Source: Mucisphaera calidilacus (GTDB taxonomy: Bacteria > Planctomycetota > Phycisphaerae > Phycisphaerales > Phycisphaeraceae). From it: 32,000 nt of DNA. The DNA is taken from the NCBI RefSeq assembly GCF_007748075.1, contig NZ_CP036280.1, forward strand, positions 1,260,001 to 1,292,000. The letters run 5' to 3'. Shown piece by piece: positions 7,926-27,585 of this stretch (its first letter is position 1; every line of letters begins with the position of its first letter). The position numbers and the translations under genes are program-made. The notes under the pieces were generated by a model. It worked only from the letters and a program-made list of their open reading frames with translations. It did no database searches and had not been told where the DNA came from.

Positions 7926-8270
7926 TTACGACTTCGTCGACTTCTCTTTCGTCGGCTTCTTCTCGGTCTTCGCCGTTGAATCGGTCTTCTTCGATTCTGA
8001 CTTGCTGTCGCTCTTGCTCTCGGACTTGGTTTCGGTTTTCGCTTTGCCCGCCTCGTCCGCCGCCTTGGCGTCCTTCTTGTACCCCTCCGAGCGATAGTCG
8101 GTCTCGTAGAAGCCCGAGCCTTTGAAGATGACGCCCGCGCCGGTGCCGATCAGCCGCTGGAGCTTGAGCTTCCCGCACGATGGGCACTTCTTCAGCGGGT
8201 TCGCGGTGATGGACTGGAACTCTTCAAACTCGTGCCCGCAGGCCGCACACTGGTAGTCATACGTCGGCAT
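7926..8270 (-). CDS. FmdB-family zinc-ribbon protein with a long Lys/Ser/Glu/Thr-rich tail
   Basis: MPTYDYQCAACGHEFEEFQSITANPLKKCPSCG shows the CxxC...CxxC pattern typical of the FmdB family. The last roughly 55 aa are low complexity (KAKTETKSESKSDSKSESKKTDSTAKTEKKPTKEKSTKS). Confidence 0.8.
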   Translation of the reverse strand: MPTYDYQCAACGHEFEEFQSITANPLKKCPSCGKLKLQRLIGTGAGVIFKGSGFYETDYRSEGYKKDAKAADEAGKAKTETKSESKSDSKSESKKTDSTAKTEKKPTKEKSTKS

Positions 8271-8283
8271 CGCCGGTCTCCTG

Positions 8284-8303
8284 AAAATAGCGCCCCGGAC
8301 GCT
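8284..8303 (-). terminator. small hairpin plus U-run immediately after the grpE stop
   Basis: Minus-strand RNA reads AGCGUCCGGGGCGCU (6 bp including one G-U pair, 3-nt loop) followed by AUUUUC. The AGGAG SD of the fmdB-like gene comes next. Confidence 0.4.
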
Positions 8304-8879
8304 TTATGCACTCACACTCACCTGCGCACCGCGGATCGTCTTGCCGCAGGCCGCGTAGCCGGGCTGGTACTGCTCGACCACGTGGTTGCTTTCGTACGCG
8401 TCGCTCGGCGTGCGCATCATCGCCTCGTGACGGGACGGGTCGAACGGGTCGCCCGGCTGCGCCTCGATCCGCTCCACGCCCATCGACGCCAGGGCCTTCA
8501 TGAACTCGTCCCGTACCAGCCCGACACCCGCGAGGATGTCCGACGACGAGGTCGTCTCCGCGTCCATATTCAGGGCGCGATCGAAGGTGTCCATGATGCC
8601 CACCAGCTTGCGCACCATGTCGAGGATCGCCTGCTCACGGGTCGTCTCGAGGTTGTTCGCCGAACGACGGACGTAGTTCTGATAGTCCGCCGCGGTCCGC
8701 AGGTACTTCGCCTCCAGCTCGTCGCGCTCGGCACGCAGCTGATCGAGCTCGTCCATCGCGGGATCCGCTTCGCCTTCACCCGTGTCGTCCACGCCCTCTT
8801 CAAAGGAAAGCGTGTCGTCCACCATCGCCTCGTCCTCAGGCGAGGGCATCTCGTCTCGATTGATGTCCTGCTCACTCAT
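8304..8879 (-). CDS. grpE: nucleotide exchange factor GrpE
   Basis: Acidic N-terminus, then the coiled-coil ELEAKYLRTAADYQNYVRRS and LDMVRKLVGIMDTFDRAL, with a C-terminal beta domain GYAACGKTIRGAQVSV. Confidence 0.95.
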   Translation of the reverse strand: MSEQDINRDEMPSPEDEAMVDDTLSFEEGVDDTGEGEADPAMDELDQLRAERDELEAKYLRTAADYQNYVRRSANNLETTREQAILDMVRKLVGIMDTFDRALNMDAETTSSSDILAGVGLVRDEFMKALASMGVERIEAQPGDPFDPSRHEAMMRTPSDAYESNHVVEQYQPGYAACGKTIRGAQVSVSA

Positions 8880-8894
8880 AACACACTCCGTGGA

Positions 8895-10031
8895 TCATTC
8901 ACCGGTCGTGCCGATGTACTGCTTCATCCGGTCCCAGAACCCCTTGGACTCGGGCAGCACCTCGAGGTCTTCCGTCTCGGCGTAGTCGCGCAGCACCTTC
9001 TGCTGCTTGCTCGTCAGCTTCTTGGGCACCTCGATCATCAGCACCACGATCAGGTCGCCCACCGGACCGCTCCGCAGGTCAGGCAGACCCGCGCCGCGGA
9101 GGCGGAGCGTCTCGCCGTGCTGCGTGCCCGGCTTGATCGTCGCCTTGTGTTCCTGCCCCAGACCCGGCACCGTGATCTCTGCGCCCAGTGTCATCTGGGC
9201 GAAGCTGACCGGCATACGCAGGATCAGGTGATCGCCGTCACGCTCGAACATCGGGTGCTTGGCCACCCGCACGACCACGTGCAGGTCGCCCCGCGGCCCG
9301 CCCTGCGTGCCCGGCTCGCCCTCGCCCGGCACGCGGATCGCCTGGCCGTCGTGGATGCCGGGAGGGATCCGGACCGACAACACGCGGTGCTTGGGCTGAC
9401 GCCCCGACCCGGCGCACGTCTCGCAGGGGTCCGAGATCACCTGCCCCGATCCCTTGCAGGTCGGGCAGGTTGTCGCGATGCGGAACATCCCCCCGAACCC
9501 CTGTTGCTGAACCTGACCCGCGCCTCGGCAGGTCGGGCAGGTCGTGGGTTTCGAGCCCGCCTTCATCCCGGTGCCCGAGCACGTCTCGCAGATGTCCTGA
9601 CGCGTAAACTCGACTTCTCGCTCGGTCCCGTTGGCCACGTCCTCGAGCGTGATCTCGACCTCGGTCTCGAGGTCGTATCCACGCCGAGCACGGCTCCCGC
9701 CGCGACCGCGCCGCCCGCCCCCCATCTGGCCGCCGAAGATGTCCTCGAAGATCGAGAAGATGTCGTCGGCACGCATCGAGCTGAAGTCGTGGCCGCTGGT
9801 GCCCCGCAGGCCCGCGTGACCGTACTGGTCATAGCGTTGGCGTTTCTGCGGGTCCGACAACACCTCGTACGCCTCCGCCGCCTCCTTGAAACGGACCTCG
9901 GCCTCGGCGTCATCCGGGTTGCGGTCCGGGTGATACTTCATCGCCAGCTTGCGGTACGAACGCTTGATCGCGTCGGCATCCGCCGTCTTGTCGACGCCCA
10001 GCACGCTGTAGTAATCACGATCCGTCGGCAT
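8895..10031 (-). CDS. dnaJ: molecular chaperone DnaJ (type I, with zinc-finger domain)
   Basis: J domain [33 protein letters not shown], a G-rich linker, and four CxxCxGxG motifs ([32 protein letters not shown]). Confidence 0.95.
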
Positions 10032-10054
10032 CAGGACCTCGGCTTCGCTGGCTG

Positions 10055-10085
10055 TAAAAGGACCCAGGGCGATCCCTGGGTCCTC
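10055..10085 (-). terminator. rho-independent terminator after groEL (copy 1)
   Basis: Perfect 11-bp stem AGGACCCAGGG/CCCTGGGTCCT (10059-10069 and 10074-10084) with a 4-nt loop, followed on the minus strand by a UUU(U)A run. It lies 31 nt after the groEL stop and 24 nt before the dnaJ ATG. Confidence 0.75.
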
Positions 10086-10115
10086 AAATCATCTCGTCCG
10101 TTGATCGGGACCGGC

Positions 10116-11729
<1,614 letters not shown>

Positions 11730-11811
11730 CGTCAATCGTCCTATCCTCAACCGGTCGCGGCCGGCCGAATGCTGGTTTCAAACTTGCGCGAATCACGCTA
11801 CGCCGGGGCGA

Positions 11812-12141
11812 TCAGCCCTCGACCACACCCAGGAGTTCACTCTCACGCATGATCTTGTACTCGGTGCCCTCGAGTTCAACCTCGGTGCCGCCATACTTGC
11901 CGTAGAGGACCTTGTCGCCGACCTTCACGGCCAGCGGCTCACGCGTCCCGTCGTCCTTGAGCTTGCCCGCGCCGACGGCCAGCACGATGCCGGACACCGG
12001 CTTCTCCTTCGCCGACTCCGGCAGGAAGATGCCGCTCGCGGTCTTCTCTTCGGCGAGCACCGGCTCAACCAGCACGCGGTCATCGATCGGGGTCACCTTG
12101 GTCTTCAGCTTGCTCTTGGTTGCAGTTGCCATTGTTTTCAT
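11812..12141 (-). CDS. groES: co-chaperonin GroES
   Basis: PIDDRVLVEPVLAEEKTASGIFLPESAKEKPVSGIVLAVGAG...GDKVLYGKYGGTEV is a typical GroES. There is an N-terminal Lys/Thr extension of about 12 aa. The second ATG (12132) has the better SD spacing (GAGAGG-10 nt). Confidence 0.95.
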   Translation of the reverse strand: MKTMATATKSKLKTKVTPIDDRVLVEPVLAEEKTASGIFLPESAKEKPVSGIVLAVGAGKLKDDGTREPLAVKVGDKVLYGKYGGTEVELEGTEYKIMRESELLGVVEG

Positions 12142-12194
12142 GCCTCTCTGGAGGGTTGTTTGTTTCGGTTCACTCGTTCACACAGCAGGGCGGT

Positions 12195-13901
<1,707 letters not shown>

Positions 13902-13982
13902 GGTTATGTCGCTCTCCAGCTAAGCTAGGTGTGCTAATGGAACGTCGTGAACCGCAGACGCACGCTCACGACATTGATGCAC

Positions 13983-14169: not shown

Positions 14170-17100
14170 TCATCCCCGGACCCGCGCCCACTGCTCGTCC
14201 AGCTTTCTCTCCGACACACTCACCGCCGTCCCCAATTCCTGCGCGAACAGCATCACCCGCCACTCCTCGAGCATCCAGCGCATGTGCTCCAACTGCGGGT
14301 CGGAAATCCCCGCCGCACGATGCTCCCCGGCACGCTTGGCATACCGGTTCCACCGCGACGCAAAGACCGCCATCTGCTTCCGGTCGCGAGAGGCCTCGCC
14401 GCGTTCGAGCTTCTCAACGCGCAGCTCGATCGCCCGCAGGTAACGCGGGAACTGCGCCAGCCACGCCCAAGGCGTCCGCGCCAAAAACCCGGGATAGATC
14501 AGGAACCCGATCTGTCCCGCAAGGTCTGACGCCACCTGCCGAGACCGTGAACGCACGCGCTCCGCCGCCCCCTGCGCCGCTCGCCACGTCGACAGGATCG
14601 CCTCCACCCGTGACAGCACGTCACTCGTCACCCCCTCGATCCGGTTCCAGCCACGATCGAGCTTCGCCTCATAAACCCCGCGGTGCCGTATCACCACGCC
14701 CTCGTCGAGATACGCCCGTTCCACGATCCGATCCATCATCGCTCGCTCAAGTGTCCGCGCATCCCCCAGCGGGGCGTAATCCAGGCGCAGGCCCTCCATC
14801 CGCAGGTCGTGCCGCAGCCGATGCCGCAGCCCGCTCTCGACCTGCAACCCGATCAGCCGCACCAGCCCGCGCATCGTCTCTCGGTTCGCCTGATCCGGGT
14901 CCTGCACCAGCCGAAGGGCCACGCCCTGTCCCTCGTCACGCAGGACCGGGAAGGCACGAAGGGTCATCCCCCCGCGACGCACCTCCACCGACTCCGGCAG
15001 GTCCTCGAAATCCCAACGCGTGATGCCCACCCGCGGCCAAGGCGAATCGCCATCCGGCAGGATCTCCGAGTCGAGATCCAGTCCGATCTTCCGACGCACC
15101 GCGCCGAGGTCACGCGAGACCATCAGCGAATGCCGCTCCGCGTCCAGCACCTCGATCGCCATCCGCAGGTGGTCATCCACGCGCACCATGTCGATCCACG
15201 CCGCCTCGACCGGCACCTCGGCGATCTCCGAGAACGCCCGCGCCGCCGACTCCGCAAGGCTGCCCATTCCAAACCGCATCATCCCCGCCGCCTTGCGTGC
15301 GACCTCCGGCGCCGGCACCAGCCGACGCCTGGCCTCCTTGGGCAGGTTGCGGATCACGCCCTCCAGTTTCTCAGGCAGCAGCCCTTGCACGAGCCAGTCC
15401 ACACGGTGCGCATCGAGCTGCCCCACCGCCTCACGCGGCACCTCGACCGTCACGCCGTCGCGTTCATCCCCCGGTTCGAGTCGATACACCAGCGGCAGCG
15501 TGATCTTCCCGAAATGGATCTCGTCCGGGAACGCCTCGGGCGTCACCCACGCCGCGTCCTCCTTGAGCACGTCTTTCCGGCTCATCCGCATCGCGTTCGC
15601 GTTCCGCGAGCGCTCGCGCTTGAGCCATTCCCTCAGCGTCACCACGTCGAACACGCCCGCCGGCAGGGTGCGGTCGTAGTAGTCGTAGATCGCCTCTCGC
15701 TCCGCCATCAGGCCCCGGCGGCGCAGCTTTGCCTCCAGCGACTCGATCTCGCCGATCAGAGCCCGGTTCGCTGCGTACGCCTCGTCCTCGAGATCGACAT
15801 CGCCGTCCACCAGCGCGTGCGCGATGAACAGACGCCGACTCGTCTTTGGATCGACACGCCCGTAACGCACCCGACGCTTGGGCACGACCGGCAACCCAAA
15901 CAGCGTGACCTTCTCCTCTGCCATCACCGTCCCCGCCGCACGATCCCAGAGCGGCTCACGGTAGCTCCGCTTGATGAGGTTCTCCGCGATCGGCTCGATC
16001 CACCCCGGGTCGATCTGCGCCACCGTCCGCGCGAACCGCCGACTCGTCTCCACACGCTCCGCCGCCATGATCCACTTGGGCTTGCGCCGCGCCAGACCCG
16101 AGCCCGGCCAGATCACCAGTTTCTGCTGGCCCGACCCGATGTACTCGCGCTCGTCCTTGAGGTAGGCGATACCGCTGAGCAGCCCGGTCAGCAGGGAACG
16201 GTGAATCGCGTCGAAGTCCTCACGCCGCGCTCGCGGCTTCAGCCCGCACTCGATCGCCACCTCGCGCAGTTGCCGGTGTACTTCCGTCCACTCCCGCATC
16301 CGTGTCGCCGACAGGAAGTTCTGCGCACACGCCTTGCGCAGCTGATTCCGCGACAGCTTCCCCTTGAGATCGTGATAGAAGTCCCACAATTCCAAGTAGG
16401 CCATGAAGTCGCTGCGTTCGTCGCTGAAACGCTCGTGGGCCGCATCGGCCTCGCCCTGCTGCTCGGCAGGTCGTTCACGCGGGTCCGCCACTTCCAGTGC
16501 CGACGCGATCACCAGCACCTCGCTCAGCACGTTTTCCGACTCTGCCGCCAGCACCATCCGCGCGACACGCGGATCAACCGGCATCCGCGCCAGCTGACGC
16601 CCGATCTTCGTGAGGGTGCCATGGTCATCGATCGCCCCCAGCTCATAGAGCGTCTTGCGCCCGTCATTGACGCGTGACGGCCGAGGCTGCTCCAGCAGAG
16701 GCAACCGCTCGAGCGCACCCAGCCCCAGCCCCATCGACCGCAGGATCACCGCCGCCAGGTTCGTCCGCAGCATCTCAGGCGGCGTGAATGCGTCACGCCC
16801 CGCGTAATCCTCCTCGTCATACAGCCGGATGCAGACGCCCGGCCCCACACGACCGCACCGCCCCTTGCGCTGATCCGCAGACGCCCGCGACACCGGCTCG
16901 ATCGGCAGCCGCTGCACCCGTGCACGCGATGAGAAACGACTCACACGCGCCAGGCCCGTGTCGACGACATACCGGATCCCCGGCACCGTGATCGACGACT
17001 CCGCCACGTTCGTCGCCACCACGATCCGACGGCCCGGATGACCACGGAACACACGGTTCTGTTCCGTGCCGGTCAGACGCGCATAAAGCGGCAGGATCTC

Positions 17101-18119: not shown

Positions 18120-21100
18120 TTACGCCGTCACCGTGACGCTGTCGTACACCACGAAGCGGCTGCGGTTGTCAACCTCCGCAAGCTCGGGTTCCGTCGCCAG
18201 TTCCAGCTCGAAGCGGTACTCGTCCACTTCAAGCGTGTTGGCCAGGTGCACGATATTCATCTCCAGCGGCACCGACTCGCCGGGACGCAGCCCATCGACG
18301 CTCGCACTCGGCAGCACCACAAGCTCGGTCTCGTCCGCCAGGTCGTTCACATTGACGGCGTACAGCTTGACGTTCACCAACTGGTTCACGCCCAGGCGAC
18401 TCGTGCCGACATTTCGCACGAACAGGTTCAACGAACCCATCGGCGTTTCGTCGCCCGCGGCCGATCGTGAGAAGTTCTGCGGGAACGAGGTGTTGCCCTC
18501 GGTGAAGATGATGTCGAGGTCCGTCTGACCATCCGACAGGATGGTCGCACTGTTGACCACGGTCGCCTTGTTGTTCGTGGCTGGGCTTGGCATGAAGTCG
18601 GCGTAGGGGGCACCGGTCGCTTCACCCTCGATCTCGGCCGTCACGAAAATCCGGTAGTTACCTGTCGGCATACCCGCCGGCAGCCGCACCGCCATGTTGG
18701 CGTTCTTGCTCTTGCCCGAGGCCAGCCGCGAGACATTCAGGACCTGCGAGGTCGATCCGTTGGTCAGCGGCAGGGTGAAGACGAACTCGGGATTACCGCC
18801 CCCGCCGATCAGGCCCGCCGTCGCCGTAAGTGTCACCTTTGCCCCCGTTGCCAGGTCCATGCCAAGGTTCGTCACCGTCACCGGCAGGCGCAGCACGGCG
18901 TTCGAACCCGCCGTCAGGTTGTTCGGGAGGTTCACCGTCCCGTTGGCCGTGGCGGCGAGGTCGATATAGCCATTAGCGCTGTCTGGCGAGAAGACCACCA
19001 GACGCACCGGCTCGCCGTCCTGATCGTTCGCCGACGTGTTGTTCTCGGTACTCTCTTCCGCCAGCGTCGTCACAGGCGTGACCGTCGCCTGCAACTCCCA
19101 GACCGTGTCCAAACCCATGCCCTCGGGACGATCGATACGCACCACCTTGCGAAGGGACTGCCCCGATCGAAGACCGCTGACGCTCACGTTCTCAAGCGTC
19201 GCCACCACACGATCTGAGGCTACCGAGTTCTCGTCCGCCGGGGTGAACACCACCGTGATATCCACACGCTGGCCACGCGGCAACGCCAGGTCGCCCAGGT
19301 TCGTGATCACCACATGCGCCGTCCCCTTGATGGGGTCGAAACGCCCGAGCGCCGCCGGCAGGTTGACGCGATCCAGACTCACGCCAAGGTCCACCGTCCC
19401 GTTGGTGATGTCGACCGAGCCCGCGCCGACGTCGCTGTTCGAAGCCAACGCGTCCGCCGCCGTGCTTCCCGGCGTGCCGTCCCACTCCTCCACGTCGCCC
19501 CGGTCCGGAGCTACCGCCTCGTCCACGACGACCACGATCTGATACGCGCCGCTCGCCAGCGGGTTGTCGCCGTCGGCGGGCGTCACGCCCGGAGGTACCA
19601 GGACGTTGAGCATCACACGCTTGCTCCGATCGGCGCCGAGATTGCCGATGTTCACGAGCGTCTCTTCTGTCAGCCGAACCGCTCGGGGCAGCAGCACGTC
19701 CGTCGTGTTGTCGCCCGCGCCGAACGGCCGCGCGTAGACCTTGAACGAAGCCATCGTGCCCCGGACAACCGTGTCCGTCCCGCTGTTCGTGACCGTCACG
19801 GGAACACGCAGCGTCTGCCCGGCATCGATCTCCGCGGGGAGCCGCGAGGTGTCGACCTCGACACCCAGGTCCACGCGTCGGTTCACCACCTCCATCGTGA
19901 AGTCGTCCGCGTCGTTCGCAGCGTCCTCATCCTCGATGTCCTCGAACGCCGTGATCGTCGCCGTGATGGTCCAGTCCTGCGACGCCACGTCGTAATCAGC
20001 CGGCAGGCCCTCCGGCAGATTCACACGCACGTTGATGTTCCTCGCGATCCCGGGCCTCAGGTTGCCCACACGCACATTCTCCGCCGTACCCAGAACCACC
20101 GTCGTCCCGTCCGGCGCCTCCGCCGTCAGCTCGAGCGACACGCGGCTCGAACGCAGCGTCGCCACGTTGCCCGTGTTCTCGATGCTCACGATCACCACGC
20201 CACGCAGCGCATCGGACGACAGCACGCTGGCCGGCAGCGTCTCACGGGCGATGTCCGCCTCGAGGTCCACAAAACCTCGCGTCCCGACCGTAAGTGTGTC
20301 GCCCGCACCGTCAGGCGACAACGCGATGTTGTTGTCCTCGCCGTCACCAGCCAGATTGGCCTCATCCACAAGGTTGTTCGCGTCGACCACCGCCACCAGA
20401 CGGTAGTCACCCGTGTCCATTCCGGCAGGCAGGAGCGCCGTCACCATCATCCGCCTGGTCTGGCCGCCACGCAGCCCCGTGATCGTCACCGGAACCGCCT
20501 CGCCGTTGTTGACCGTCAACAGCACGTCCTGGCTGTCATCCACCGCACCGACCGGCCGGGCGTACATCTGCACAAAGACCTGGCGACTCACCTGCACCTG
20601 GCTGCCCACCGGCTGCCGGAATGAGAAAGGCGTCAGCGTCCCCGTGCCCAGCTGCGTGATCTCCAGCGGCACACGGATCCGCGTACCGTCACCCGACGTC
20701 AGGCCGTCATAACGATCCAGCGAGAGGTTGCTGCCGAAGTCAATCCCCAGGTCCACCGTCGGCCCGGTGATCTCGACGGTGCCCGTCGACGCGTTCGCAT
20801 CAGGCCGACGCGCCACGTTATTCGACTCGTCCGCCTCGGCCACCACGTCCCCGCCGTCGATGAGCGCCACGACGTCATAACGCCCGACGCCCGCCGTGCC
20901 CGGGACCTGCAGGGCCACGTTGTTCAGGTCAAGGGTCCCGCCCGAGGCCAGACCGCTTACGTCCACGAACACCGTCTTGAGCACCACGTCGTTGAAGTCC
21001 GTCACCGCGTCCACGGGACGCAACGCGAACGTCACCGCGATCGGGTCCGTGCTGGGCGCCACCGACGTTGCGCCCGCGTTCGTCAGCTCAAGCGACACAC

Positions 21101-24100
21101 GCAGGTTGTGCGTCCTGCCCGCCAGCCAGCGCGTGTCCTCGCCCAGCGACGACATCGTCAACTCACCCGTCAGGTCCGGCGCCGGCGAGGTCGTCACGTC
21201 AAACGTTGTCGAGACCATCTGGCCGTAGGCGTCCGTCGCCGTGACCGTGATGCTCTCCGTCCCCACCGCCCCGTTGATGAAGTCCAGCACCAGCTCGCCG
21301 TCCGCGTTGATCGAGGCATCGACGACATCATCCCCCGCCTCGCTGAATGTGAAGGTGATGTCCTCACGCACCGAGTCGAACAGCACAAGATCACTCGGCA
21401 GGTCCACCGGGTCCGATTCCCGAATCTCACGCAACGGCGTGTTCGTAAAGGTCGTCTCGTTCGACAGGCCGAGATTCGCCGTCCCCAGGCCCATGATCGC
21501 GTCGATCACCTCCATGCCGCCTCGGATCACCTGACCGAACACCGTCGCGCCCGTCGCGTCAAGGCCCTCGCTGTTGTCCTCGGTGTTGATCGACCACATG
21601 CTCGAAGCGATCGCCGTCTCCAGGCTGGAGCCGAACCAGGTCACGGTCCCGCGTGTGTTCGAAAGGCTCGCCTCGCTCGCGATCACGCTGCTCGACGACA
21701 CCCTCCGGATCCGGTCGCTCGCCGGGTCGAGCACGTAGCCGCCCGCGAGCAGCGACGTCTGCGCATCGTTGTCGATCAGGTGCTGGAAGAAGCTGTTGTC
21801 ATAAGCGCCGCTGTCCGCGAACGCCGAGAACGCGTCAACCGTCAGCGGCGCGTCCCCGGTGCGCAGCTGCAGGATGAAGAAGTCCGTTCCGCCGATCGCG
21901 TGCGTCAGGTCCACCCGGTACAGGTCGTTGCCCTGATCGAACACGTCGAACAGGTTGATCACGTGGTCCTCGGTCGACGACGACGTCACCACGTCATCGA
22001 TGTCATTCACGATCTCCGGGCTGCCGACCGAGACGTACGCCTCCGCCGTGTTGTTGGTCTCGTCATCCTCGGTCGCGTCGCCCGGATCGCTCTGGGCCGG
22101 CGTGTCCGAATCGATGAACGCCACCACCGCGTACGCCCCCTCGGGGGTGTCCGCCGGCAGCGTCAGATCGAAGTCACGCGGGTCCGACGAATCCACCGCC
22201 CGGCCCGCGATCGGCACCACAAAACTGCCCAGGTCCACAATCGCCCCGCCCAGTTCAGGCCGCAGGCCGAACGTCACCGTCACGTCCGCCTGACCACCCG
22301 GCACGTCCAGGATCCCCACGAGGATGTCCAGCGTTACCCGGATGATCCCGCCCGCGCCCGCATCAAAGCCCGCCTCGGTACCCGGACGCAGCGTCAGGTC
22401 GCCCGTCAGGTCCGGGCCCGTCGCCACCGTGAACGAAGGCCCGATCAGCGTGTTGTCCGCCTCGTTCTCCTCCGTCAACGCATCACCCGAATCGATGAGC
22501 ACCAGCACGCGGTACGTCCCGGCAGTCAGGGTGTCAGGCCCGTCATCGTCGATGTCGTAGTTGATCACCAGCGGCGCCAGCGACGATCCCGCCGCCAGGC
22601 CGTCCAGCACGATCCCCGCCTCGGTGTGCAGCGTCACATCACCCGAATCGTCCATTGCGTCGATCGGCCGAGCGATCACAACCAGGTCGATCGTCGCGGC
22701 ACCGATGTCCAGCAGGTCGTTCCGCAGCAGCACCGTCAGCGACTGCCCGTTGCTCGCCTGCCCCTCAGCGATGTACTCGGGTGGCGTCGACGCATCGGTG
22801 ATCGAACCCGACAGGTTCGGGCCCGCCACCACACGCACGGCATCACCCGCCACCGTCAGCGGATCCCCCACGCCATCGATCGTCACCACCGCGATCACCG
22901 TGTAGGTCCCCACCGTCGTCCCCGCGTCAATCGTGACGTTCACAACCTCCGTCAGCGGCGTGCCCCTCACCAGGTCGCCGACGAGGTTGAACACACTCGA
23001 ACCGATCTCGATGTCGTCCTCGCCCGCCTGCCGCAGCACGATGCTGATCGACACCTCGGTGCCCGCCGCGATGTCCAGCCCGTTGTTGCTCAGTTCCACC
23101 GTCACCGCGGCGTTGGTCTCGGTCTGATCAACTCGCTCCGGCAGCGTCGAATCCGTGATGTCCGCCTCGGGTAAGGCAACCGTGGCCAGCGTCACGCCAG
23201 CCACCCGTGCCGTGTTATTGACCGGACTGCCCTCGAGCTGCTTGCTGTCGTCGTTGACGATCACCAGCAACTCGTAGGGCCCGTTCACCTGCCCGGCGGG
23301 GATGGTGTAGTTCACTGCCTGCTGCAGCGTTGCTCCCACATCCAGCGCCGAGAGGTCCAGGCCCGCGTTGTCCCCCTCCGCCACAAGAACCACGTCATTG
23401 CCGCCGCCGACCGGACGCAGCACGACCTGGTACTTCACATCCCCGTAGTTGGCCCCCAGAACGTCAAGGCCGGTGTTGGTCACCGTGAACGTGATCGCCC
23501 CCGAGTTACTCGAGCTGCTGTCGATGAACGAGCCATCCGAAAGGCCTGTCACGCCATCAACCGTGACGCCAAGATCACGCCCGTCGAGACCCGAGACGTC
23601 AAACAGAGCCTGCGAGTAGTAGAAGATCGCCGGGCCGCTCACCTCGTGATTGGCCAGATCAGGGTCGTCATCAACCACAAGCCCTGTATCCACAATCGCG
23701 ATCAAGCCATAGGGCGTCGGGTCCGTAGCCGCGGCAGGATCTGCCACGGGATTCAGGTCAATCAGTGTGACCGTGTCCGGCAGGGTCACGTCGATCACGA
23801 TGTCGACGGACTCACCCTCGGCCACGTCCGCCGAGAAGGTGTGGTCATGGCTCGTGAGCACGGCCGTGTTGAAGTTGTCATCCGGGCCATCGAGCAGCGC
23901 AGCACGCAGCAGGAAGTCGATCGTGATCGTTGTCCCCGAGTTGATCAGGTCGCCGTTGTTCGTCAGTCTCAGCGTGACCTGTCCCGTGAGTTCATTGCCA
24001 GCCACCCAGTTCGTCGGGAAGGTGTTCTCAACGATATCGCTCGTGAAGCGCGGCTCATCGACAGCCTCGTCCACGTCCAGCGTCACGCCGAACACAAACT

Positions 24101-26201
24101 CGTTGTTCGCCGGCTGGAAATCCTCCACCGCGTGATCATCGGCGTTCACAAACAGCGTCGCGACCAGGCTGTACGTCCCTGTCTCAAGGTCATCCGGGAA
24201 GGCAAGGTTGATCCCCGCGAATGACTGCTGCTCGAACGTGTCCAGATCATTGAGCGCAAACGTCGTCTGCTGGAGTTGAACATCCGTCCCGCCTCCCGCC
24301 GGCCGCAATGCGAACTGCACGTCCACGTCCTGGCCCTCGATCGACGCCAGCAGGTTGCGGATCGTCAGGCTGATCTGACGCGTTTCGGCCGTTCCGGCCG
24401 TCAGCGCCGCCGTCGACGAAAGCCCGTCGACCTCGATCGACAGATCCCGTGGCTCCAGCACCGACACCAGCACCGTCGAGGTGATCGCGGCGTTGTTCTC
24501 ATCCGCCCCCGCGTCCTCATTGAGGTTGCCATCCGGGTCGATCTCCGCCAGCAACTGGTACGCGCCCACCGGCAGGATGGCCGGCAGCGTGATGTCGATG
24601 TCGAACGTGCCCGAATCACCCGTGTACAGATCGATCAGGTCGATGGTCGTGTCCGTCAGCAGGATGTCCGCGCTGTCGTCCTCCGCGCCCACCGATCGCA
24701 GCGAGAGGCGCACGTCCACCGTCGTCGTGCCCAGCAGCGATTCACCCAGGTTCTGCACGCTCAGCGTCGCCGTGCCCGACGCACTCGCCGTCTGGCCGTA
24801 ATATGAAACCTGGTTGTCCAGCGACGACGTCACGCCTATGGCACGCAGGTCCGTCTCCGCGTCCGCGATCGTCACCACCTCGCCCGTCACGACCTCGTTG
24901 TCATACTCAGCCCGCTCCTCAAGGTCGTCGTTCGTGTCGATCGACACGATGAGGTCGTAGCTCTCCAGCGTCAGCCCCGCGGGCACCGTGACGTTCACGC
25001 CGGCGGGCGTCCAGTCCTCGCCCACCCCAAGCCCTCCGGGCTGAACCACAAACGTTCCCGTGCCGATCGTGATGTCCGATGAGCTATCCAGCGCGTCCGA
25101 GGGACGCAGCAGGTAGGACGCGAAGAACGATGACCCCGCCGCCAGCGCCGCGTTGCCCGTGTTCGTGAACGTCGTGCTGATCAGGCCCGCCGTCGCAGCG
25201 GTCGAACCCGTCTCGATCACCGCCGGGATATTGCTCGTGATCGCCGCGGACAGGTCCGGGGCGTTGTCACGCGTCGTCTGGACCGTGAACTCATCCTCAA
25301 CGACGCTGCCGTCGATGTACGTGGCCCGGATCACGATCGTCGAGGTCCCCGTCGCGCCGGGTGTGAACTCGAGCTGGAGCTGGCCATCCACGATCGCCGC
25401 CGTCACCACGCCCGCATCCGAGTTACTCACGATCTCAAACGTATCCAGCAGACTGTCGATCGACGAAAACACCACAAGGTTCTCATCGTCCAGCAGCGGG
25501 TCGGCATCAGGGTCGCGAACGGGCGTATCGCTGAACGCGCCATTCGACGACGTGAAATCCTCGGTCTGCAACGCCGCGATCGCGTCCACCACGTCCATGC
25601 CGTCGTCCAGCACCTCGCCGAAGGCCGTAAACCCGCCGTTCTGGTTGTCGAGGTTCTGGCTGTTGTCGCCCAGGTTGAAGAACCACTGATTTGTCGCTGA
25701 GTTCGGATCCCCGCCAAGCTTCGCCATCGCGATGGTGCCGCGCGTGTTCGAGATACCCGGCTCGTTGGTGACGGGATCGAAATCCGTGATCTCGCTGATC
25801 GTGCTGTCGACCGGGTCCACCGTAAAGCCGCCGCCCTGAACGATGAAGTCCTCGACCGACCGATGAATCACCGTTCCGTCCCACAAGTCCTGATCGGCGT
25901 ACTGCCGGAAGTTTGCTGCCGTCAGAGGCGTCTCATCCTCGAACAGCCGCACGTCGAAGAAGTCGTCCGCCGTGCCGAGCGAGTCGGACAGCGTGAACCG
26001 ATAGACGTCGGTGTCACTGAACACTTCAAACAGATCGATCGTCTGCTCTGTCCGGTTCGGAAAGACGATGTCTTCGATCGCGTTCTCCACCACCGCGCTC
26101 AGCAGCACACGGTCCTCAAGCGTCTCCAGACGAGCCACCGGCTCAGCAACCTCGTCAGCACCACGCTCGAAAGAACGACCGATCATCCGGATCAAACTCA
26201 T
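18120..26201 (-). CDS. giant (about 2,693 aa) extracellular-type protein: leader, then [cyclophilin PPIase + Ig-like] + about 8 CARDB-like repeats, then [degenerate cyclophilin + Ig-like] + about 7 CARDB-like repeats
   Basis: Single uninterrupted ORF. The track starts it at GTG 26231; I prefer ATG 26201 (MSLIRMIGRSFERG...LETLEDRVLLSA). The cyclophilin signature is VIHRSVEDFIVQGGGF / NTRGTIAMAKLGGDPNSATNQWFFN / FGEVLDDGMDVVDAI. The repeats share DL...(V/L)x(V/L)xNxG...LxxG...GxYxLxAxxD...ExxxxNN, which is the CARDB pattern. Confidence 0.9.
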   Translation of the reverse strand: MSLIRMIGRSFERGADEVAEPVARLETLEDRVLLSAVVENAIEDIVFPNRTEQTIDLFEVFSDTDVYRFTLSDSLGTADDFFDVRLFEDETPLTAANFRQYADQDLWDGTVIHRSVEDFIVQGGGFTVDPVDSTISEITDFDPVTNEPGISNTRGTIAMAKLGGDPNSATNQWFFNLGDNSQNLDNQNGGFTAFGEVLDDGMDVVDAIAALQTEDFTSSNGAFSDTPVRDPDADPLLDDENLVVFSSIDSLLDTFEIVSNSDAGVVTAAIVDGQLQLEFTPGATGTSTIVIRATYIDGSVVEDEFTVQTTRDNAPDLSAAITSNIPAVIETGSTAATAGLISTTFTNTGNAALAAGSSFFASYLLRPSDALDSSSDITIGTGTFVVQPGGLGVGEDWTPAGVNVTVPAGLTLESYDLIVSIDTNDDLEERAEYDNEVVTGEVVTIADAETDLRAIGVTSSLDNQVSYYGQTASASGTATLSVQNLGESLLGTTTVDVRLSLRSVGAEDDSADILLTDTTIDLIDLYTGDSGTFDIDITLPAILPVGAYQLLAEIDPDGNLNEDAGADENNAAITSTVLVSVLEPRDLSIEVDGLSSTAALTAGTAETRQISLTIRNLLASIEGQDVDVQFALRPAGGGTDVQLQQTTFALNDLDTFEQQSFAGINLAFPDDLETGTYSLVATLFVNADDHAVEDFQPANNEFVFGVTLDVDEAVDEPRFTSDIVENTFPTNWVAGNELTGQVTLRLTNNGDLINSGTTITIDFLLRAALLDGPDDNFNTAVLTSHDHTFSADVAEGESVDIVIDVTLPDTVTLIDLNPVADPAAATDPTPYGLIAIVDTGLVVDDDPDLANHEVSGPAIFYYSQALFDVSGLDGRDLGVTVDGVTGLSDGSFIDSSSSNSGAITFTVTNTGLDVLGANYGDVKYQVVLRPVGGGNDVVLVAEGDNAGLDLSALDVGATLQQAVNYTIPAGQVNGPYELLVIVNDDSKQLEGSPVNNTARVAGVTLATVALPEADITDSTLPERVDQTETNAAVTVELSNNGLDIAAGTEVSISIVLRQAGEDDIEIGSSVFNLVGDLVRGTPLTEVVNVTIDAGTTVGTYTVIAVVTIDGVGDPLTVAGDAVRVVAGPNLSGSITDASTPPEYIAEGQASNGQSLTVLLRNDLLDIGAATIDLVVIARPIDAMDDSGDVTLHTEAGIVLDGLAAGSSLAPLVINYDIDDDGPDTLTAGTYRVLVLIDSGDALTEENEADNTLIGPSFTVATGPDLTGDLTLRPGTEAGFDAGAGGIIRVTLDILVGILDVPGGQADVTVTFGLRPELGGAIVDLGSFVVPIAGRAVDSSDPRDFDLTLPADTPEGAYAVVAFIDSDTPAQSDPGDATEDDETNNTAEAYVSVGSPEIVNDIDDVVTSSSTEDHVINLFDVFDQGNDLYRVDLTHAIGGTDFFILQLRTGDAPLTVDAFSAFADSGAYDNSFFQHLIDNDAQTSLLAGGYVLDPASDRIRRVSSSSVIASEASLSNTRGTVTWFGSSLETAIASSMWSINTEDNSEGLDATGATVFGQVIRGGMEVIDAIMGLGTANLGLSNETTFTNTPLREIRESDPVDLPSDLVLFDSVREDITFTFSEAGDDVVDASINADGELVLDFINGAVGTESITVTATDAYGQMVSTTFDVTTSPAPDLTGELTMSSLGEDTRWLAGRTHNLRVSLELTNAGATSVAPSTDPIAVTFALRPVDAVTDFNDVVLKTVFVDVSGLASGGTLDLNNVALQVPGTAGVGRYDVVALIDGGDVVAEADESNNVARRPDANASTGTVEITGPTVDLGIDFGSNLSLDRYDGLTSGDGTRIRVPLEITQLGTGTLTPFSFRQPVGSQVQVSRQVFVQMYARPVGAVDDSQDVLLTVNNGEAVPVTITGLRGGQTRRMMVTALLPAGMDTGDYRLVAVVDANNLVDEANLAGDGEDNNIALSPDGAGDTLTVGTRGFVDLEADIARETLPASVLSSDALRGVVIVSIENTGNVATLRSSRVSLELTAEAPDGTTVVLGTAENVRVGNLRPGIARNINVRVNLPEGLPADYDVASQDWTITATITAFEDIEDEDAANDADDFTMEVVNRRVDLGVEVDTSRLPAEIDAGQTLRVPVTVTNSGTDTVVRGTMASFKVYARPFGAGDNTTDVLLPRAVRLTEETLVNIGNLGADRSKRVMLNVLVPPGVTPADGDNPLASGAYQIVVVVDEAVAPDRGDVEEWDGTPGSTAADALASNSDVGAGSVDITNGTVDLGVSLDRVNLPAALGRFDPIKGTAHVVITNLGDLALPRGQRVDITVVFTPADENSVASDRVVATLENVSVSGLRSGQSLRKVVRIDRPEGMGLDTVWELQATVTPVTTLAEESTENNTSANDQDGEPVRLVVFSPDSANGYIDLAATANGTVNLPNNLTAGSNAVLRLPVTVTNLGMDLATGAKVTLTATAGLIGGGGNPEFVFTLPLTNGSTSQVLNVSRLASGKSKNANMAVRLPAGMPTGNYRIFVTAEIEGEATGAPYADFMPSPATNNKATVVNSATILSDGQTDLDIIFTEGNTSFPQNFSRSAAGDETPMGSLNLFVRNVGTSRLGVNQLVNVKLYAVNVNDLADETELVVLPSASVDGLRPGESVPLEMNIVHLANTLEVDEYRFELELATEPELAEVDNRSRFVVYDSVTVTA
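18123..21178 (-). repeat. coding array 2: about 7 divergent CARDB-like modules (about 125-165 aa each)
   Basis: Modules were delimited by eye at recurring (P/V)DL(T/G/E/A/D) starts and ...E(x)NN(x) ends, for example EADESNNVA, GEDNNIAL, ESTENNTSA, PATNNKAT. Confidence 0.7.
21179..22013 (-). other. second cyclophilin-like domain (catalytic residues substituted) plus Ig-like domain
   Basis: FFQHLIDNDAQTSLLAGGYVL / NTRGTVTWFGSS / SSMWSINT / FGQVIRGGMEVIDAI, followed by VDASINADGELVLDFINGAVGTESITVTATDAYGQMVSTTFDVTT. It is collinear with the first module. Confidence 0.7.
22014..25256 (-). repeat. coding array 1: about 8 divergent CARDB-like modules
   Basis: Same recurring signature, with ends such as AEYDNEVV, GADENNAAI, QPANNEFV, SPVNNTAR, ENEADNTL, DDETNNTA. 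Confidence 0.7.
25257..26093 (-). other. first cyclophilin-type PPIase domain (catalytic signature intact) plus Ig-like domain
   Basis: ANFRQYADQDLWDGTVIHRSVEDFIVQGGGF...NTRGTIAMAKLGGDPNSATNQWFFNLGDN...GGFTAFGEVLDDGMDVVDAIAAL, then VTAAIVDGQLQLEFTPGATGTSTIVIRATYIDGSVVEDEFTVQTT. Confidence 0.8.
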
Positions 26202-26312
26202 GACAACGACCTGCCTATAAAAAGGAAACACAACTCAGCGTCGATCACCAAGTGTCGCCGCTGATATGCACCATCGCAAGGCGGATTTCGACAAACCCGC
26301 CCGTCTCGCTTA

Positions 26313-26358: not shown

Positions 26359-27426
26359 CTATTCAACCACAACCGGCGCCGTTTCATCCGACACCGATGA
26401 CTTTTCTTCTTCAATCGCGACAGAAACCGTTTCACCCGCCACAGCCTCAGAAACCTCGGTCTCGCCAGCCGTCTCGGCCGCCGGCTCGGTCTCGGGGACA
26501 ACATCCGTGCCCGTGGCCATCTCATCGGAGTCAGCATCGGCAGCAGGGGGGGCCACGGCCTCTGTTTCGGGAGCCGTCGCGGCAGATTCTTCAGGCTGAG
26601 CCTCCGCTTCAGCGGGCAGAACCAACGCCGCCCCCGCGGCAGGCTCATCGTTCAGCGGCTGCTCCTCAACGATCGGCACCGCCGGCATGACACCGCCCAT
26701 CGGCTCGGGCGCACCGCCCGGCGATCCTGCCGGCAGCGTCCGCAGCACCGCGTAAGCCGCCACGCCCACCGCCGCCAGCGCCACCAAAAGGCTGGCCACC
26801 GCGATCAGCGTCATCTGGCGACGCCCCTTGTCGTACAGATCGCGGACCTGACTGTCCGCTCGCTTGGTCCGCTCGGCCAGGGTCCGCAGCATCAGCGTGC
26901 TCGCCTGGCTCGTCTCGTCCAGCTTCCCGAGCGTCGAGCCCAGGCCGCCCAGGCGATCTGAGAGCACGGCATCCGTCCGCTCACGCACCGACAACGCCTT
27001 GGCGATCTGATCCAGCCCCGTCTGCTCGTTGTCGAACGCCGTCGTCAGACGCTCGAGCGTTCCGTTGAGGATCGCGCGGTCCTCGGCGTGCGCCGTGATC
27101 TGCTTCTGCAGCAACGCCGCCATCTTCTGCTGCGTCTCCGCAACATGACGCAGCTGCGCCACCGCCTCGGGCATCTCGCGGACCGCCTCCAGGAGTCGCT
27201 CCGAACGATCAGCCTGATCACGGGTGTGCGTCTTCACCGACGCCATCACCTCAAGAACCTGCTCGTAACCCTCTTCGAGCCGCGCTAATGTGCCCTCACG
27301 CTGGGGCCGACCCGTCGCGACCGGCAATCCTCCCACAGTCTCGGTCTCCTCCGCCGCGTTCCGGTTGCGGCGCCAATCAAACAGTCGAAAAAAACGCTCA
27401 GAGAGCTTCATGGCCATCGTGGACAT
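26359..27426 (-). CDS. coiled-coil single-pass membrane protein with an acidic Glu/Ala/Pro/Thr-rich C-terminal tail
   Basis: The start is set at ATG 27426 (MSTMAMKLSERFF), preceded by AGGAG-7 nt. About 190 aa of heptad-like helix follow (LEEGYEQVLEVMASV..., QQKMAALLQKQITAHAEDRAILNGTLERL...), then one TM helix (MTLIAVASLLVALAAVGVAAYAVL), then about 115 aa of acidic low-complexity tail with ETE-type repeats. Confidence 0.75.
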   Translation of the reverse strand: MSTMAMKLSERFFRLFDWRRNRNAAEETETVGGLPVATGRPQREGTLARLEEGYEQVLEVMASVKTHTRDQADRSERLLEAVREMPEAVAQLRHVAETQQKMAALLQKQITAHAEDRAILNGTLERLTTAFDNEQTGLDQIAKALSVRERTDAVLSDRLGGLGSTLGKLDETSQASTLMLRTLAERTKRADSQVRDLYDKGRRQMTLIAVASLLVALAAVGVAAYAVLRTLPAGSPGGAPEPMGGVMPAVPIVEEQPLNDEPAAGAALVLPAEAEAQPEESAATAPETEAVAPPAADADSDEMATGTDVVPETEPAAETAGETEVSEAVAGETVSVAIEEEKSSVSDETAPVVVE

Positions 27427-27453
27427 CCAGGGACTCCTTAACAACACACGATA

Positions 27454-27507
27454 GAGACTCGCCCTATCTATGCCAGCCGATCCGTCGGCCGACTCATTCC
27501 GAGTCTC
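27454..27507 (-). promoter_or_regulatory. nested stem-loop in the GTPase to coiled-coil intergenic spacer
   Basis: The outer 8-bp inverted repeat is GAGACTCG (27454-27461) / CGAGTCTC (27500-27507). The inner hairpin is GCCGA-tccg-TCGGC (27476-27489), overlapping the palindrome TCGGCCGA (27485-27492). Confidence 0.35.
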
Positions 27508-27585
27508 CGTCATTATCGGTCCAGATGGCCGCAATGTCGAAGATTTCCCCATACCACCGAACCCCCAAAAACGACCTCAAACAAC

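Follow-up and report, generated by a model that had tools for sequence, protein, structure and literature searches.

Two cyclophilin heads on a giant CARDB-type repeat protein of Mucisphaera calidilacus, a candidate extracellular fibre

What might a surface fibre of a bacterium use a cyclophilin for? The question is opened by a single gene of the marine planctomycete Mucisphaera calidilacus (class Phycisphaerae), which lies in a stretch of 32,000 nucleotides (RefSeq assembly GCF_007748075.1, contig NZ_CP036280.1, positions 1,260,001 to 1,292,000), hereafter the window, to whose own numbering all coordinates below refer, on the minus strand unless the plus strand is named. The gene occupies a single open reading frame (ORF) at 18120..26231 on the minus strand, with 2,703 codons counted from the first GTG to the stop, and residue numbers in this text follow that count. 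The annotated coding sequence begins at the ATG at 26199-26201 and specifies a protein of 2,693 amino acids (aa) and 281.5 kDa, with a pI of 4.05 and no cysteine, that is 100% identical to the 2,693-aa NCBI entry "peptidylprolyl isomerase [Mucisphaera calidilacus]" (here P0001). An initial annotation, made from the letters of the sequence alone, had already taken this 8.1-kb ORF for one giant gene, without stating its strand, and the ORF is indeed real. We read its product as an exported fibre of the adhesin or matrix type that displays a cyclophilin as a binding or isomerase module, and would give this reading a probability of about 0.5; export, ligand and activity we infer from sequence, from structural models and by analogy. 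The protein itself already has a database entry that bears a generic enzyme name, and functional modules that bud from giant repeat proteins are known as well; what seems new is the cyclophilin as the budding module, in a cassette that is shared by three phyla and is absent from the literature that we searched.

The two heads and their CARDB-like arrays

Behind a leader, the protein is made of a cyclophilin, an immunoglobulin-like (Ig-like) piece and eight CARDB-like units, followed by a cyclophilin-like domain, a second Ig-like piece and seven further units. Each cyclophilin is also preceded by a short N-extension, and we refer to N-extension, cyclophilin and Ig-like piece together as the cassette, or head. 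The first supermodule, head plus array, covers aa 47-1403 (4.07 kb) and the second aa 1404-2703 (3.90 kb), in agreement with the sizes of about 4.0 and 3.9 kb estimated at first. Pfam finds the Pro_isomerase family (PF00160) twice, at aa ~47-262 with 112 bits and at aa ~1404-1622 with 50 bits (cut-off 21.7), which bears out the proposal of a cyclophilin domain in both supermodules.

The first cyclophilin (Cyp1; 25449..26006, aa 76-261) is PpiA/PpiB-like and retains the catalytic Arg, Phe and Gln together with the pocket: at the positions of R55, F60, Q63, A101, Q111 and F113 of human CypA it has R, F, Q, A, Q and F, all of them kept. Its nearest relatives in the Protein Data Bank (PDB) are bacterial PpiA/PpiB, with an E-value (E) of 1e-22 and ~30% identity. 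An AlphaFold2 model of aa 36-325, built with 30 cassette sequences, reached a predicted local distance difference test score (pLDDT) of 89.3 and a predicted template modelling score of 0.80, and in Foldseek the Cyp1 barrel matched E. coli PpiA/B and other bacterial cyclophilins (1J2A, 2NUL, 3T1U) with template modelling (TM) scores of 0.83-0.88 and a root-mean-square deviation of ~2.2 Å; the domain is predicted to be an eight-stranded cyclophilin barrel. Cyp1 thus shares fold, about 30% of its residues and the Arg/Phe/Gln pocket residues with PpiA, PpiB and the free-standing bacterial cyclophilins, which, however, are soluble enzymes of 160-190 aa, whereas Cyp1 lies between an N-extension and an Ig-like piece, in a 281-kDa repeat protein that has the domain twice. 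As a side observation, PDB entry 8xck, a cryo-electron microscopy structure of the phage lambda central tail fibre in its closed state, contains chains of E. coli PpiA, and is a solved structure in which a cyclophilin accompanies a beta-rich fibre protein.

A database search returned three full-length orthologues (37-47% identity): P0002, with 47% identity over a protein of 2,697 aa and 8+7 units; P0003, from a metagenome-assembled genome of the Phycisphaeraceae, with 37% identity, 2,893 aa and 10+7 units; and P0004, from a Mucisphaera species, with 38% identity, 2,851 aa and 9+7 units. Two heads are present in all four proteins, and Cyp1 is the most conserved module, being 62-67% identical to its orthologues when single units are 25-65% and the whole protein 37-47% identical. 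The second, cyclophilin-like domain (Cyp2; 21369..21920, aa 1438-1621; Pfam 50 bits, PDB E 1e-7) is degenerate. At the CypA positions listed above it shows R55 replaced by H, F60 by T, Q63 by L, A101 by F, Q111 by M and F113 by S, and it is 39-50% identical to its orthologues. Cyp2 is likewise degenerate in P0002 and P0004. The P0003 copy is nearly intact and keeps R, Q, A, Q and F, so that the decay of Cyp2 is lineage-specific and followed the duplication. Most likely, then, the M. calidilacus Cyp2 is a pseudo-enzyme, and probably it persists as a structural or binding remnant. Across 179 cyclophilin domains of giant homologues, the catalytic Arg is kept in 144, the Phe in 144 and the Gln in 155.

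For the arrays, Pfam CARDB (PF07705) scores 64.5 bits over the whole protein (cut-off 22.7), and five of the 15 units match it singly at E <= 0.01. Unit boundaries were drawn by eye on the recurring pattern xDL...N.G...LRP...P.G.Y...D....E..E.NN, and a hidden Markov model (HMM) made from the units so framed recovers exactly 15 full-length copies, eight behind head 1 and seven behind head 2, the very numbers that had been estimated from the letters; a count of 16 repeats from an early iterative HMM was discarded, as its badly framed seed had drifted onto the second Ig-like piece. Smith-Waterman scores between units reach 153 (shuffled null 34 +/- 6, maximum 58). The units are 116-163 aa long. 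Array A (22023..25259, aa 325-1403) has its units starting at aa 325 (A1), 459 (A2), 595 (A3), 726 (A4), 885 (A5), 1022 (A6), 1138 (A7) and 1273 (A8, to aa 1403). Array B begins with B1 (20760..21182, aa 1684-1824), an A-type unit, and goes on with B2-B7 (18123..20759, aa 1825-2703).

An AlphaFold2 model of unit A7 (47 unit sequences; pLDDT 93.9) forms one domain of eight strands whose top PDB match is the CARDB domain 3idu/2kl6 (E 1e-5, with a modest TM score of 0.50-0.59), followed by the fibronectin-like domains of GH3 glycosidases, and we take the fold of the repeat unit to be a predicted beta-sandwich of the CARDB type. The best structural match, the CARDB domain of Pyrococcus furiosus PF1109 (PDB 3IDU, 2KL6; PF07705), is ~100 aa long, whereas the units of M. 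calidilacus are longer and only a third of them match the family one by one. Given that 3idu is a di-metal entry, one might guess that the conserved acidic and Asn-Asn ends of the units bind metal. Pfam also labels aa 907-1004 as DUF4832 (40 bits, cut-off 29.2), a label which is found as well in the precomputed annotation of P0001-P0003; the match contains no individually significant stretch, and we rejected it as probably the spurious sum of weak beta-sandwich matches. In composition the protein is rich in Val (10.9%), Asp (10.2%) and Thr (10.1%); the Pro-rich part of the Pro/Asp/Thr-rich fibre first proposed is not borne out, as Pro makes up 4.4%.

A cyclophilin cassette in three phyla

The cassette is by no means confined to this protein. 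All 120 long homologues from a first search contain PF00160 along with Big_9, cadherin-like, I-set, He_PIG, fn3, Calx-beta or CARDB repeats; 43 of them hold two to five cyclophilins, and an Ig-like piece of ~60 aa stands behind nearly every cyclophilin. In two of these proteins, P0005 and P0008, five cassettes each follow one another with a regular spacing of ~360-470 aa, and repetition of the cassette within a protein is therefore a recurrent theme and not a peculiarity of the M. calidilacus gene. Scanning one genome per GTDB species yielded at least 575 related stretches, with matches to the full cassette in Planctomycetota, Verrucomicrobiota and Cyanobacteriota and matches to the core only in Proteobacteria. 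An exhaustive search of 1.84 billion cluster representatives returned 1,427 proteins at E <= 1e-30, and 86 of the best 149 non-self clusters at 50% identity align over N-extension, cyclophilin and Ig-like piece, in proteins of 286-3,348 aa; a phage database held ordinary cyclophilin cores only. In the literature searched we found neither a study of an exported cyclophilin + Ig cassette nor a characterised protein with a cyclophilin in a repeat fibre. The initial annotation had called a peptidylprolyl isomerase in a repeat scaffold unusual, which is correct as far as characterised examples go but not for sequence databases, where the layout is frequent.

An Ig-like domain behind the cyclophilin had also been proposed. 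There is indeed an Ig-like piece behind each cyclophilin in M. calidilacus, but it is only ~60 aa long and has no Pfam match above cut-off. Ig-like piece 1 (25260..25448, aa 262-324) has five predicted strands and matches the C-terminal ~55% of a Big_9-type domain; Ig-like piece 2 (21183..21368, aa 1622-1683) is 45% identical to it and matches positions 46-89 of the 89 of the Big_9 HMM at E 1e-3, below cut-off. An alignment of 30 cassette Ig-like pieces likewise covers only positions 37-89 of Big_9 in hhalign (E 3.5e-5). Ahead of the cyclophilin, N-extension 1 (26007..26093, aa 47-75) carries predicted beta-strands at aa 55-57 and 62-66, modelled by AlphaFold2 at pLDDT ~82-85, and N-extension 2 (21921..22022, aa 1404-1437) is its paralogue. 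When N-extension and Ig-like piece of three homologues were spliced together, all three gave full-length Big_9/He_PIG matches, two of them above the Pfam cut-off (Big_9, PF17963: 25.1 and 37.6 bits, cut-off 23.6), and the scores lay 3-12 bits over those of controls consisting of the Ig-like piece only or of the piece with a shuffled or reversed extension. For the giant protein's own splices, head 2 scored 18.9 bits over the full length of Big_9, under the same cut-off, and head 1 gave no match. N-extension and Ig-like piece co-occur strongly (odds ratio 66, p 3e-20), and because the two also flank cassettes deep inside proteins, the N-extension belongs to the module and not to the leader. These data, the models and the comparison with RTX adhesins, in which split Ig-like domains give off ligand-binding domains as buds (PMC12077191), make it moderately probable, in our estimation, that the cyclophilin is nested in a Big_9-type Ig domain split into N-extension and Ig-like piece.

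With respect to export, the N terminus of the protein, MSLIRMIGRSFERGADEVAEPVARLETLEDRVLLSA, combines a basic stretch with LETLEDRVLLSA, and the leader motif LETLEDRVLLSAV (26094..26132, aa 34-46), with the basic stretch ahead of it, is of the LExRxLL / Planc_extracel type, at an HMM score below cut-off. Of the 120 homologues, 47 have the LExRxLL pattern within their first 120 aa, and it is found nowhere else in the 217,000 aa of the set. Cassette proteins of Verrucomicrobiota begin with classical Sec signal peptides, and those of Planctomycetota have a basic stretch and LExRxL in the same place, which points indirectly to an extracytoplasmic cassette family and to a planctomycete motif that takes the part of an export signal. 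The giant LEPR-XLL / PF07595 proteins of planctomycetes share with ours the N-terminal LExRxLLSA after a basic stretch, the giant repetitive build and the phylum, although our protein scores under both curated cut-offs, and the role of the motif is itself uncharacterised. Four cyanobacterial cassette proteins (L013, L015, L045 and L082; 457-646 aa) start directly with the cassette, have no N-terminal signal and share the C-terminal ending ...L.L.(G/N)V.....(L/I)T..DF(V/.), which may be a type I secretion signal.

Proposed function and the self-folding alternative

In the reading that we favour, the leader-bearing, acidic and Cys-free protein would be exported, with two heads that each stand ahead of a CARDB rod, of eight and then of seven units. 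N-extension and Ig-like piece would together make up a single split Ig domain of the Big_9 type, with the cyclophilin budding from its side, and the rods would serve as extenders that hold the cyclophilin heads off the cell or within a dense extracellular matrix. The intact head 1 would bind and/or isomerise Xaa-Pro motifs of partner proteins, and would thereby be the functional module of the fibre, as are the ligand-binding domains that bud from split Ig-like domains in RTX adhesins. A pI of 4.05, the lack of Cys and the beta-sandwich arrays are all traits typical of extracellular proteins, and M. calidilacus Pan265 is reported to form a dense extracellular matrix, within which it grows as a viscous colloid (PMC8882080).

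The closest analogues are the RTX adhesins AhLap, FrhA and MpIBP (PMC12077191, PMC10865825), which would share with the giant protein a long rod of beta-sandwich extenders, a non-repeat functional module both of whose termini return to a small Ig-like domain, and an acidic, probably Ca2+-dependent nature. They differ in that the M. calidilacus protein has no RTX nonapeptides and carries its module near the N terminus, and in that its extenders are of the CARDB type and all distinct, whereas many RTX adhesins have near-identical repeats. Pfam recognised no components of type I secretion among the neighbouring ORFs of the window, and a cyclophilin as the module of an RTX adhesin is not reported in the literature searched.

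Peptidylprolyl isomerases outside the cytoplasm are themselves familiar: Legionella Mip, pneumococcal SlrA and Bacillus PrsA are surface enzymes that serve in folding or in binding to host or matrix. These, however, are small proteins, either lipoproteins or dimers, and some belong to the FKBP or parvulin type; to our knowledge none of them is embedded in a repeat fibre, and the bacterial surface peptidylprolyl isomerases that we know of are small lipoproteins. Prolyl isomerases need no ATP, which is true of few folding catalysts, and are therefore suited to the space outside the cell.

Several results weigh against an exported fibre with a nested cyclophilin. The leader has no hydrophobic core of the Sec type, with at most 3 consecutive hydrophobic residues in the first 60 aa, and its motif scores 15.7 for LEPR-XLL (NF012209; cut-off 17) and 11.3 for Planc_extracel (PF07595; cut-off 25.5). 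Neither RTX repeats (GGxGxD anywhere) nor an LPXTG or other anchor motif are present in the giant protein, and a Pfam scan of it found no SLH or other anchor family. The conserved position of the gene beside GroEL/GroES/DnaJ/GrpE could be read as a link to chaperones. Lastly, the protein's own spliced sequences show no gain from the N-extension, a home-made Big_9 HMM applied to 175 automatically spliced cassettes gave a median gain of ~0 bits, and hhalign scored 27.6 bits with the N-extension, 27.4 for the Ig-like piece only and 28.9 with a reversed N-extension. Because the home-made HMM and hhalign fail to support homology between the N-extension and Big_9, the split-domain claim rests on the other evidence given above.

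The alternative that survives best is that each cyclophilin, once the protein has been exported unfolded, speeds the folding of its own downstream array, so that no external ligand would be involved. An array does follow each cyclophilin, and many units have conserved prolines, with the consensus '[LA]RP' and 'P.G.Y'. Prolyl isomerisation is often the limiting step when Ig-like domains fold, and the catalytic Arg, which in CypA R55 mutants weighs more on catalysis than on binding, is kept in 144 of ~159 aligned homologous domains. We nevertheless consider such a self-folding role rather unlikely. In three of the four orthologues the catalytic residues of Cyp2 are gone, and array B still has seven well-conserved units in all four; the cassette also occurs in proteins of 286-500 aa that have no array, and beside unrelated repeats such as Big_9, cadherin-like, I-set, He_PIG, fn3 and Calx-beta; and the protein is not Pro-rich. 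Since a degenerate Cyp2 precedes a conserved array, array-free cassette proteins exist and the partner repeats vary, the self-folding catalyst, one of two roles suggested by the initial annotation, loses ground, and the other, a surface-displayed foldase or proline-peptide binder, is the best remaining reading of the two.

History, surroundings and meaning of the gene

How the two supermodules came about was addressed at two levels. The heads were compared by BLAST after the protein had been cut at its second head, and aa 50-584 aligned with aa 1409-1972 in one segment that spans cyclophilin, Ig-like piece and the first two units (31% identity, E 1.6e-43). Orthologues apart, the Cyp2 cassettes of each of the four proteins are most closely related to the Cyp1 cassettes of their own orthologue group. 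This indicates that the heads are paralogues which arose by an intragenic duplication before the split of the four lineages. The arrays were compared as 15 unit profiles, each built from four orthologous copies and matched all-against-all with hhalign. Here the diagonal of A units with B units of the same rank scored 363, when random pairings give 333 +/- 29 (P = 0.15; P = 0.14 for units 3-7 only), and collinearity of the arrays is not significant. B1 groups with A-type units, scoring 118 with A7, its best profile match, and 105 with A3; B2, B4 and B6 form one subfamily (scores 93-118) and B3, B5 and B7 another (B3-B5 109, B5-B7 72), so that array B consists of B1 and a two-unit block in triplicate (B2B3, B4B5 and B6B7). 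Array A has internal pairs of its own, A3 with A5 and A4 with A6. By the unit profiles, then, the arrays behind the heads expanded largely on their own, and array B is not a diverged copy of array A.

The initial annotation had suggested an ancient duplication of the whole unit, of which the part concerning the heads stands and the part concerning the arrays does not. A single ancient tandem duplication of the entire supermodule, that is of cyclophilin, Ig-like piece and ~8 CARDB units, followed by divergence only, has in its favour the identical domain order found twice, the like sizes of the supermodules, the BLAST segment that runs into the first two units and the fact that B2 finds its best cross-array match in A2. 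The non-significant diagonal, a B1 that resembles A7 rather than A1, the triplicated block in array B, the separate pairs of array A and the number of units among orthologues, which varies from 8 to 10 in array A and is constant at 7 in array B, nonetheless make such an event quite improbable. In any case, internal duplication is ordinary repeat-protein evolution.

With respect to single units, the best match of each in every orthologue is the positionally equivalent unit, with the sole exception of A1 in P0003, where it matches best one of the extra units that arose there by recent duplication; it follows that the units are old, individually conserved and not homogenised. The extra units are worth a remark of their own, as units 6-8 of P0003 (aa ~978-1352) are far more alike than its other units, a likeness that marks a recent tandem expansion of array A in that lineage (10 units, against 8 in M. 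calidilacus).

Around the giant gene, the window shares with the genomes of P0003 and P0004 one gene order on one strand: DUF2868, DUF3482 GTPase, a protein with a coiled coil and a transmembrane segment (~365-397 aa), the giant gene, HrpA, GroEL, GroES, GroEL, DnaJ and GrpE. In M. calidilacus the upstream part of this block consists of the DUF2868 gene (29009..30454), the DUF3482 GTPase gene (27586..29034), which overlaps the former by 26 nt, and the gene (26359..27552) of a coiled-coil protein of 397 aa that has a single transmembrane segment and ends in an acidic tail, all three of them kept in the three genomes. Downstream of HrpA lies the chaperone cluster, with GroEL (12195..13901), GroES (11812..12141), a second GroEL (10116..11750), DnaJ (8895..10031) and GrpE (8304..8879), in an order kept in two other Phycisphaerae genomes. 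It is thus conceivable that the giant protein is an intracellular or periplasmic, chaperone-like peptidylprolyl isomerase tied to HrpA, GroEL-GroES-GroEL, DnaJ and GrpE, as the order kept on one strand in three genomes and the lack of a canonical signal peptide would suggest. Between these genomes, however, the neighbours are 48-91% identical, and therefore the synteny reflects their relatedness, with the giant protein, at 37-38%, encoded by the fastest-evolving gene of the block. The chaperones are housekeeping genes (81-91% identical) whose shared ancestry explains the conserved order, and we dropped a functional tie to them for this reason. Rapid divergence, typical of surface proteins, goes together here with a pI of 4, the lack of Cys and the CARDB arrays, and homologous cassettes bear Sec signal peptides, all of which renders a chaperone role very unlikely. 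Farther away, on the plus strand, a gene at 30734..31951 encodes a protein of 405 aa that carries a classical Sec signal peptide, MLKQVIGMTALAAIAAPAMA, as well as a type I dockerin domain (Pfam E 2e-8). The C terminus of this protein, PAPEPAVAGILGLGALGLIRRR, resembles by eye a PEP-CTERM sorting signal, a likeness that no HMM confirmed.

As for the integrity of the gene, the window has a G+C content of 64-67%, and the giant gene shows values of 0.65/0.44/0.85 by codon position, the same pattern as its neighbours HrpA and GroEL, with a third-position G+C that is even along the gene (0.82-0.87) and a frame without interruption. The longest direct DNA repeat within it is 42 nt, at <=81% identity, and tandem repeats are trivial only, in keeping with the early remark that the repeats are recognisable in the protein and not as near-identical DNA; because they are visible in the protein only, collapse of repeats is of no concern. 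That the gene is an assembly chimera, a collapsed repeat or a pseudogene, a worry that stems solely from its size and repetitiveness and for which no supporting evidence was found, can be set aside with near certainty, since the contig, at 3,486,541 bp, has the full length published for the genome, for which no plasmid is reported (PMC8882080), no DNA repeat exceeds 42 nt, frame and third-position G+C are unbroken, and orthologues of 2,697-2,893 aa with unit-by-unit positional orthology exist in three independent assemblies, two of which also have the same neighbours. Opposite to real genes, on the plus strand, run very long ORFs of up to 1,206 aa (8232..11852, 12120..13928, 14683..16677, 19314..20624 and 21108..23174); those that were translated give Arg/Leu/His-rich junk with a mirrored composition (G+C of 0.84-0.88 at first codon positions, and of 0.86-0.88 for the ones inside the giant gene) and without a Pfam match, and these ORFs are artefacts of a genome with high G+C. 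Rfam and tRNA scans of the window found nothing, and scans for promoters and terminators stayed at chance level.

The cassette described here recurs as a module whose cyclophilin has an Ig-like domain at its flanks and probably sits nested within it. The module keeps its catalytic residues in very many proteins of three phyla, which range from stand-alone proteins of ~300 aa up to fibres longer than 3,000 aa. Tentatively, it may represent an undescribed and widespread family of exported split-domain cyclophilins that act outside the cell as a tethered, ATP-independent prolyl isomerase or as a receptor for proline motifs; in M. calidilacus, such a family would tip a CARDB fibre with one active copy and place a pseudo-enzyme copy half-way along it, where they might organise or fold the matrix of this organism. 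With an intact and a degenerate head in one molecule, the M. calidilacus protein offers a natural within-molecule comparison, in a cultivable strain with a striking matrix phenotype, for the question of what role a cyclophilin may have on a bacterial surface fibre.

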